Shown here: positions 3,686-4,096 of the stretch, piece after piece | How the letters are laid out: each line of letters begins with the position of its first letter | Numbering within the stretch: position 1 is the first letter of the stretch | Assembly (NCBI RefSeq): GCF_024223415.1 | Contig: NZ_CP100500.1 | Source of the DNA: Escherichia coli | GTDB lineage: Bacteria > Pseudomonadota > Gammaproteobacteria > Enterobacterales > Enterobacteriaceae | DNA: 64,000 bases | Direction: 5' to 3' (one strand) | Notes under the pieces: generated by a model | Seen by the model: only the letters and a program-made list of their open reading frames with translations | Told to the model about the DNA's origin: nothing | Databases searched by the model: none | Made by a program: the position numbers and the translations under genes

Positions 3686-4096
3686 TCAGAAGGGTATATC
3701 ATCTCCGTAGGGGTCATCGCCTCCCGCTGGTGGCTCATTCCCCTGTGTGCCTGTGGTTTTGCGTCTGTTCCCGCCATGACGTGCCGCACGCGCACTGATT
3801 ACGCTGTCTGCGATAACCTGCCAGCCCTGCCGCGTTTCCCCGTTCTGTCCGGTCCACTGGCTCACCTGCATGTTACCCGCCACGCTCAGGAGTTCACCTT
3901 TGCGGTGCTTTGCCAGTGCTTCGGCCTGTCTGCCAAACGCCAGCACAGATAACCACATCGTCGCCGTTCCGTCATCTGCCTGGCTGCACGGAAGGGGGAC
4001 CGCCATACTCGCCATCGCCATTTGTGTCCCCTTGCTGGTGGTCTTTAACTGCGGGTCAGCCACCAGCCGCCCGTAAGCCGCTATCTGTGCTGTCAT
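3686..4096 (-). CDS. Single-stranded DNA-binding protein (SSB-like, 136 aa)
   Basis: OB-fold-like N-terminus, Gly/Pro-rich linker and the SSB acidic tail ending DDIPF; ATGA overlap with the upstream gene. Confidence 0.7.
   Translation of the reverse strand: MTAQIAAYGRLVADPQLKTTSKGTQMAMASMAVPLPCSQADDGTATMWLSVLAFGRQAEALAKHRKGELLSVAGNMQVSQWTGQNGETRQGWQVIADSVISARAARHGGNRRKTTGTQGNEPPAGGDDPYGDDIPF

Follow-up and report, generated by a model that had tools for sequence, protein, structure and literature searches.

A bacterial-type SSB gene with a host-type acidic tip and its probable place in the replication module of an Escherichia coli PICI

Introduction

[quoted passage not shown] The question is raised by a minus-strand gene, ssb, in the 64 kb stretch of E. 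coli DNA that was analysed here (the window). The original prediction held that a satellite encodes this SSB, that the DDIPF tail of the protein allows it to plug into host interactions, and that it presumably supports replication after induction. The SSB identity is already known at the annotation level from the RefSeq name. [quoted passage not shown] 2023, PMC10111431). Helper-phage induction, replication, and high-frequency transfer were shown for EcCICFT073 only, the prototype Gram-negative PICI (Fillol-Salom et al. 2018, PMC6092414). The main EcCICFT073 papers make no mention of an SSB, and no functional study of any PICI SSB was found in the literature searched. We consider it likely that the ssb product is a bacterial-type SSB in the replication module of an EcCICFT073-type PICI, where it would act as an accessory protein that recruits host partners.

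Results and Discussion

Identification of the ssb gene

The ssb ORF begins with ATG and comprises 136 codons, and the encoded protein ends in GGDDPYGDDIPF followed by the stop codon. The terminal codons, GAT GAT ATA CCC TTC TGA, read D-D-I-P-F-stop, and the predicted limits of the gene, 3686–4096, were exact with the stop codon included. The product matched Pfam SSB PF00436 with 58.7 bits (cutoff, 26; E, 6.7e-16), TIGR00621 ssb with 57.4 bits (cutoff, 53.95), and PHROG 44 “single strand DNA binding protein” (E, 1e-39). It also matched 25 distinct SSB sequences of the PDB at E ≤ 1e-3, the best of which was Thermus SSB (E, 1e-13). These matches, together with the predicted OB fold described below, confirm the predicted SSB identity, and the ORF is a genuine SSB gene and no chance reading frame. 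An identical protein of E. coli strain GF4 is annotated by RefSeq as an SSB (WP_029490252.1), and over its first 10.6 kb the window is a 100% match to the GF4 genome. The same intact ORF occurs, with identical sequence, in two complete genomes, and near-identical islands are present in two others.

Predicted structure and comparison with E. coli SSB

The structure of the ssb product was modelled by AlphaFold2 (AF2) from a 70-sequence alignment of close homologues and 50%-identity cluster representatives. The mean pLDDT of the model was 85.8, and each 10-residue block in residues 1–100 averaged more than 90. The model contains strands at residues 3–11, 16–19, 25–36, 44–54, 69–82, and 88–101 and a helix at residues 55–62; the resulting order, strand-strand-strand-helix-strand-strand, is the pattern of the OB fold, here a barrel formed by residues 1–101. 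Residues 102–136 had pLDDT values of 53–63 and were modelled without secondary structure. When the model was compared with the PDB using Foldseek, bacterial SSBs accounted for 50 of the 50 top matches listed (best E, 2e-9), with target-normalised TM-scores of up to 0.83. The OB fold, on which the original prediction depended, is therefore predicted with high confidence by AF2 and Foldseek.

The chromosomal SSB of E. coli (178 aa; the reference sequence was identical to PDB 1eqq over 178 residues) shared 27% identity with the island SSB in BLASTP. The two proteins have in common the OB fold, a disordered C-terminal region, and the DDIPF end. Of the four ssDNA-contacting aromatic residues, three have counterparts in the alignment: the ssDNA-stacking residues W54, F60, and W88 of E. 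coli SSB align with W48, F54, and W80 of the island SSB, whereas W40 has no equivalent. Across the family alignment, W48 and F54 show little or no variation. At the tetramer interface, H55 of E. coli SSB is replaced by Leu. The linker of E. coli SSB is 56 aa long and rich in Gly, Gln, and Pro, whereas that of the island SSB is 25 aa long and basic, with a net charge of +4. Because the island linker is basic and less than half as long, the mode of ssDNA binding and the cooperativity may differ from those of E. coli SSB, as judged from the sequence. The length of the linker varies among the relatives, giving forms of 136, 140, 141, and 149 aa. In regard to the tip, the last five residues of DDPYGDDIPF, which contains four acidic residues and an aromatic residue at position −7, are identical to those of the E. 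coli tip MDFDDDIPF, in line with the prediction of a DDIPF ending; position −6 is Gly in the island SSB and Asp in E. coli SSB.

Selection on the acidic tip

The pooled Nei-Gojobori dN/dS over 49 unique alleles, drawn from 79 related loci and the window, rose from 0.045 in the last ten codons to 0.18 in the OB domain and 0.45 in the linker, values to be read with the small number of codons in the tip and the non-independence of the sequence pairs in mind. Synonymous change in the last ten codons was high, and dN/dS was far below 1 in all regions of ssb. The tip is the most constrained part of the gene, and the host-type character predicted for it is thus upheld both by its DDIPF end, identical to that of E. 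coli, and by the strongest purifying selection in the gene.

The constraint on the tip is not absolute, because one sublineage of PICI SSBs, found at 14 of the best 80 of 380 IMG/VR loci (among them L033, L036, L062, and L065), carries DDISF instead of DDIPF. We take this Pro-to-Ser change to affect the position mutated in E. coli ssb-113, a mutation that weakens partner binding, and the DDISF lineage tolerates a tip that is expected to be weakened. Other small integrative elements also encode short SSBs (median, 138 aa, among 50%-cluster representatives); these share 33–50% identity with the island SSB and have the same short linker, but the elements are without the orphan partner described below. 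The tip consensus of 63 full-length distant representatives in this identity range was P-F-D-D-[DE]-I-P-F.

The island and its relation to EcCICFT073

The island is approximately 11.3 kb long and lies between yejO and tRNA-Pro(GGG) (proL), beside yejM; its other end falls outside the window, approximately 810 bp left of position 1. The features within the window are summarized in Table 1. All annotated island genes are on the minus strand. Transcription runs from the integrase through a small hypothetical gene, the AlpA gene, a 595-aa “Icd-like” ORF, a further small hypothetical gene, and the DUF4222 gene to the AAA_25 helicase, the PHROG 1231 orphan, the SSB, the PerC, and the ProQ/FinO genes; it ends with a small hypothetical gene, the E-type capsid, the D-type decoration, and the PHROG 1999 genes, after which one further small island gene lies past the left edge of the window. 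The ProQ/FinO-domain protein, which has an RNA-chaperone fold, carries a Lys/Gln-rich N-terminal extension.

Table 1. Features of the island and of the ssb product in the window.
Feature	Coordinates	Strand	Basis and remarks
PHROG 1999 protein	391–804	−	Capsid module
D-type head decoration	817–1152	−	Capsid module
Lambda E-type major capsid	1164–2219	−	Pfam, PHROG, RefSeq; capsid module 391–2219
ProQ/FinO-domain protein	2684–3268	−	Pfam, RefSeq; rare cargo, 3 of 80 loci
PerC-family regulator	3348–3668	−	Pfam; directly downstream of ssb
ssb	3686–4096	−	136 aa; RefSeq WP_029490252.1, “single-stranded DNA-binding protein”
Acidic C-terminal tip DDPYGDDIPF, residues 127–136	3689–3718	−	Sequence, dN/dS
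Short basic disordered linker, residues 102–126	3719–3793	−	AF2; 25 aa, net charge +4
OB-fold ssDNA-binding domain, residues 1–101	3794–4096	−	AF2, BLASTP, Foldseek
Orphan gene, PHROG 1231	4093–4344	−	83 aa; stop overlaps ssb start (ATGA)
Putative PICI replication origin	4345–4560		AGTGGGKA iterons in both orientations, A+T-rich centre
Replicase: RepA-family helicase with AAA_25 domain	4546–5961	−	471 aa; Pfam, PHROG, RefSeq
DUF4222 gene	5958–6257	−	Pfam; conserved upstream of replicase
AlpA-family regulator	8257–8463	−	RefSeq name; Pfam AlpA weak and below cutoff (17.6 bits; cutoff, 21)
Tyrosine integrase	8960–10201	−	Domain scan, RefSeq; adjoins tRNA-Pro
tRNA-Pro(GGG), integration site	10420–10496	−	tRNA/annotation

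An integrase at one end, site-specific insertion, a size of roughly 10–15 kb, AlpA, one-directional genes, and a replicase followed by iterons are all features of PICIs. By its layout, integrase, AlpA, and rep/iterons the island belongs to the EcCICFT073 PICI family, which agrees with its predicted satellite nature. No terminase (including the large subunit), portal, tail, or lysis genes were seen in the island, either in its annotation or in scans with Pfam and PHROG. The SSB of EcCICFT073 (WP_000126698.1) is 82% identical to the island SSB, is also 136 aa long, and has the same GGDDPYGDDIPF end. The two elements share the gene order replicase, iteron origin, orphan, SSB, PerC, and capsid genes, and the capsid module of the island is homologous to c1499 and c1500, which are named as the capsid and decoration genes of EcCICFT073 (PMC6092414). 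They differ in the replicase, which is a P4-type primase in EcCICFT073 and a RepA-family helicase in the window, in their iteron sequences, and in their integration sites, which lie between roxA and phoQ in EcCICFT073 and at proL in the window.

They differ further in rpp, the gene for redirecting phage packaging. EcCICFT073 keeps rppA, whereas the island lacks the intact rpp gene that belongs to the definition of EcCICFT073-type PICIs and retains only a remnant at window positions 33–98, which matches the final 22 residues of the CFT073 Rpp homologue. This homologue matches RppC (PDB 6hlk) with an E of 5e-31. Because the island is without an intact rpp, it may be a partly decayed satellite and may be unable to redirect helper packaging or to complete a satellite cycle. 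At the end with the rpp remnant (window 1–390 and approximately 810 bp to the left; L001 8187–9390), a segment of 266 bp runs in the opposite orientation to its EcCICFT073 counterpart. No direct repeat of at least 14 nt flanks the island, and the sole att candidate found was a 10-bp repeat matching the 3′ end of the tRNA.

The minus-strand region 6455–8242 lies where PICIs have their variable regulatory zone, which in EcCICFT073 contains small divergent genes. It is occupied by a stop-free ORF of 595 aa, the “host cell division inhibitor Icd-like protein” of RefSeq. Approximately 500 aa of its translation are junk-like and rich in Arg, Ser, and Cys. Two small plus-strand ORFs inside it, 6897–7067 and 7311–7505, share the motif PP...FPLE[DR]FI..R.RIR. 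The region had no Pfam match, nor any Rfam match even at E ≤ 1. A P4 CI-like immunity RNA was also considered for the zone at 6.4–8.3 kb and was rejected, no Rfam match being obtained at the gathering score or at E ≤ 1.

The iteron origin, the orphan gene, and expression of ssb

The ssb gene is the second gene after the replicase and lies just past a putative origin, which is bounded on one side by the orphan start codon and on the other reaches slightly into the 3′ end of the helicase gene, whose stop is at 4546. Nine exact AGTGGGKA iterons were found at 4355–4557, in addition to degenerate copies. The whole 64 kb window contains 12 matches to this motif, nine of them in the putative origin, against 1.8 expected by chance. 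The origin of PICIs has been described as iterons directly 3′ of rep that flank an A+T-rich region (PMC6092414), and 4345–4560 is probably the origin of the island. The same gap contains GGTAGAYAG-like iterons in EcCICFT073 and GGTGAACAG-like iterons in a PICI at the cspD/clpS site, and in all three elements the orphan-SSB pair follows the origin gap. The replicase and the origin specificity thus change together, whereas the orphan-SSB pair is retained.

The orphan gene upstream of ssb is highly conserved, with the core GEGYAKAHPELISAFMTTAAANFATLTEREIAEAEQVTTINVKTGE, and its family does not extend beyond Escherichia, Shigella, and Citrobacter. It had no Pfam, NCBIfam, or PADLOC match. Its AF2 model, obtained from a 25-sequence alignment, was a low-confidence helical hairpin (pLDDT, 59) and was too poor for a structure search. 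The ATGA overlap between the orphan stop and the ssb start was conserved at 79 of 79 related IMG/VR loci, which implies, as far as sequence can tell, that translation of the two genes is coupled.

The conservation of this overlap also bears on the possibility that ssb is a mere passenger, at present without function in the window island. The loss of rpp and the odd, junk-like 595-aa ORF suggest some decay of the island, as would suit a passenger. However, the ssb ORF is intact in the two complete genomes mentioned above, with near-identical islands in two others, its dN/dS is far below 1 in every region, and its start remains tied to the orphan stop at all 79 loci. We regard the passenger explanation as extremely improbable.

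In regard to expression, AlpA activates the island operon of EcCICFT073, and a helper phage switches AlpA on; over-expression of AlpA leads to uncontrolled replication of EcCICFT073 that requires pri (PMC6092414). By its position and strand, and by analogy with EcCICFT073, the ssb of the window would belong to the AlpA-activated operon. A consensus scan of 2300–4700 revealed no promoter-like site that could be dedicated to ssb and no more terminator-like sites than expected by chance. The absence of a promoter and terminator of its own fits the expression of ssb as part of an operon.

Distribution of the SSB lineage

A scan of IMG/VR with the single SSB protein gave 380 loci with an SSB relative, of which the best 80 were kept. 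All of these (80/80) were colinear, in the order replicase, orphan, SSB, whereas the type of replicase and the capsid module varied. Among the best 80 of the 380 loci, the SSB was present at 80, the orphan gene PHROG 1231 at 77, the DUF4222 gene at 72, and PerC at 52. The P4-type primase was found at 44 of these 80 loci and the RepA helicase at 23, and the E-type capsid plus decoration genes were found at 42 and a protease-capsid fusion at 11.

Of 5426 complete E. coli genomes, 1780, or approximately one-third, contained homologues of ssb, and the capsid gene was present in fewer (1028). No close homologue of the SSB was found among 50,697 phage records; the best match, in Dulem virus 33, an uncultured virus from faeces, had 34% identity and was followed by Gram-positive phages at approximately 30%. 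Only 10 of 72,556 plasmid records carried a protein with at least 60% identity to the SSB, and one of the 10 is a 4.9 Mb record that is probably a chromosome. On these comparisons the SSB lineage is specific to PICI-like islands.

Two other sources of the gene were considered. An SSB acquired from a helper coliphage was rejected, as none of the 50,697 phage records exceeded 34% identity, and a plasmid-type SSB was rejected, as the lineage is very rare on plasmids. The SSBs of conjugative plasmids (F ssb) and of phages are likewise element-encoded extras of the bacterial type with a host-compatible acidic tip, and those from plasmids can complement ssb mutants of E. coli. Unlike those SSBs, the island lineage is near-absent from plasmids and has no close relative in phages.

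Conjugative plasmids encode SSBs in their leading regions, probably as an aid after transfer into a new cell, and the island SSB could in the same way act in establishment after transfer, or else in integration, excision, or recombinational repair of concatemers. Transferable elements often encode SSBs, homologues of the lineage occur on a few plasmids, and the tip could recruit RecO, RecQ, RecJ, or RecG. However, phage capsids that package PICI DNA deliver double-stranded DNA, so that the island arrives in double-stranded form, unlike the single strand of conjugation. Moreover, ssb lies far from int, inside the AlpA-dependent operon, and Pfam, PHROG, and RefSeq indicated no recombinase encoded nearby. 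A role of this kind is very unlikely.

Proposed role of the island SSB

The reading that we prefer places the SSB in the replication of the island. We infer its ssDNA binding, oligomeric state, partner recruitment, expression timing, and effect on replication along the following lines. The ssb gene would be transcribed with the rest of the one-directional island operon, and its translation would be coupled to that of the upstream orphan gene. The SSB would then coat the ssDNA exposed at the iteron origin and the forks of the island, and the acidic DDIPF tip would dock host SSB-interacting proteins (for example, Pol III chi, DnaG, and PriA) on the island DNA. In this manner, extra SSB capacity would be supplied while helper and island replicate jointly. 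The location of ssb beside the iteron origin fits a replication role after AlpA and helper induction, as had been presumed in the original prediction. The rep gene and ori of EcCICFT073 maintain a plasmid without ssb (PMC6092414), and the SSB is therefore at most an accessory factor that is not required for initiation.

The same tip and location could also suit a weapon or a shield, that is, an SSB that mainly titrates host SSB-interacting proteins away from the helper or, in anti-defence, acts as a decoy or shields ssDNA from host systems that detect or attack the replication intermediates of phages. A strongly constrained host-type tip would be appropriate for a competitor for host partners, the lineage is satellite-specific with no close homologue in the phage records, and ssb lies after ori, where Gram-positive PICIs keep their interference genes (PMC6739421). 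When the post-ori genes of EcCICFT073 were cloned singly, however, only c1503 (RppA) cut lambda plaquing, ssb being assumed to have been among the clones (PMC6739421), and neither the SSB nor its neighbours matched any PADLOC defence model; both results disfavour a role in interference. In addition, ssb travels with the replicase and ori, independently of the capsid and interference modules, which are variable. We consider such a function unlikely.

Within the preferred replication role, the constancy of the orphan-SSB pair could be given a more specific meaning, namely that the coupled orphan and SSB act as a “host-replisome adaptor”, a portable cassette peculiar to the PICIs of E. coli; this is speculative, and we judge it quite unlikely. 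Its content would be that a short-linker SSB, aided by the orphan, loads at any island iteron origin and that the tip captures host Pol III, DnaG, and PriA for the island, possibly at the expense of the helper, a proposal to which we give correspondingly little credence. If it were true, PICIs could swap replicase and origin specificities freely.

The finding itself is ordinary and matters little beyond correct annotation. It confirms that E. coli PICIs have a dedicated, satellite-specific SSB lineage that is paired with the orphan and in which the host-docking tip is strongly constrained. What is added is a profile of selection on the tip, an invariant coupling to the orphan, the retention of the pair across replicase and origin types, and the absence of the lineage from phages. 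The orphan-SSB pair is an easily deletable candidate for dissecting the helper-independent replication of Gram-negative PICIs.

Distant homologues

The orphan gene was absent from the distant elements examined, including L085 and L086. Two other distant homologues, P0126 and P0167, are on contigs shorter than 2 kb, and their gene context is uninformative. L086 has the order primase, gap, SSB, PerC. The 23.1 kb metagenome contig L085 (ENA) contains a 9.6 kb element as approximately 2.4 tandem copies, with genes for an integrase, a 147-aa SSB of the island lineage, an AAA_25 helicase, and a Dam methylase. Because it was assembled as tandem copies, the element is circular or concatemeric, and it may be an excised small satellite-like element.
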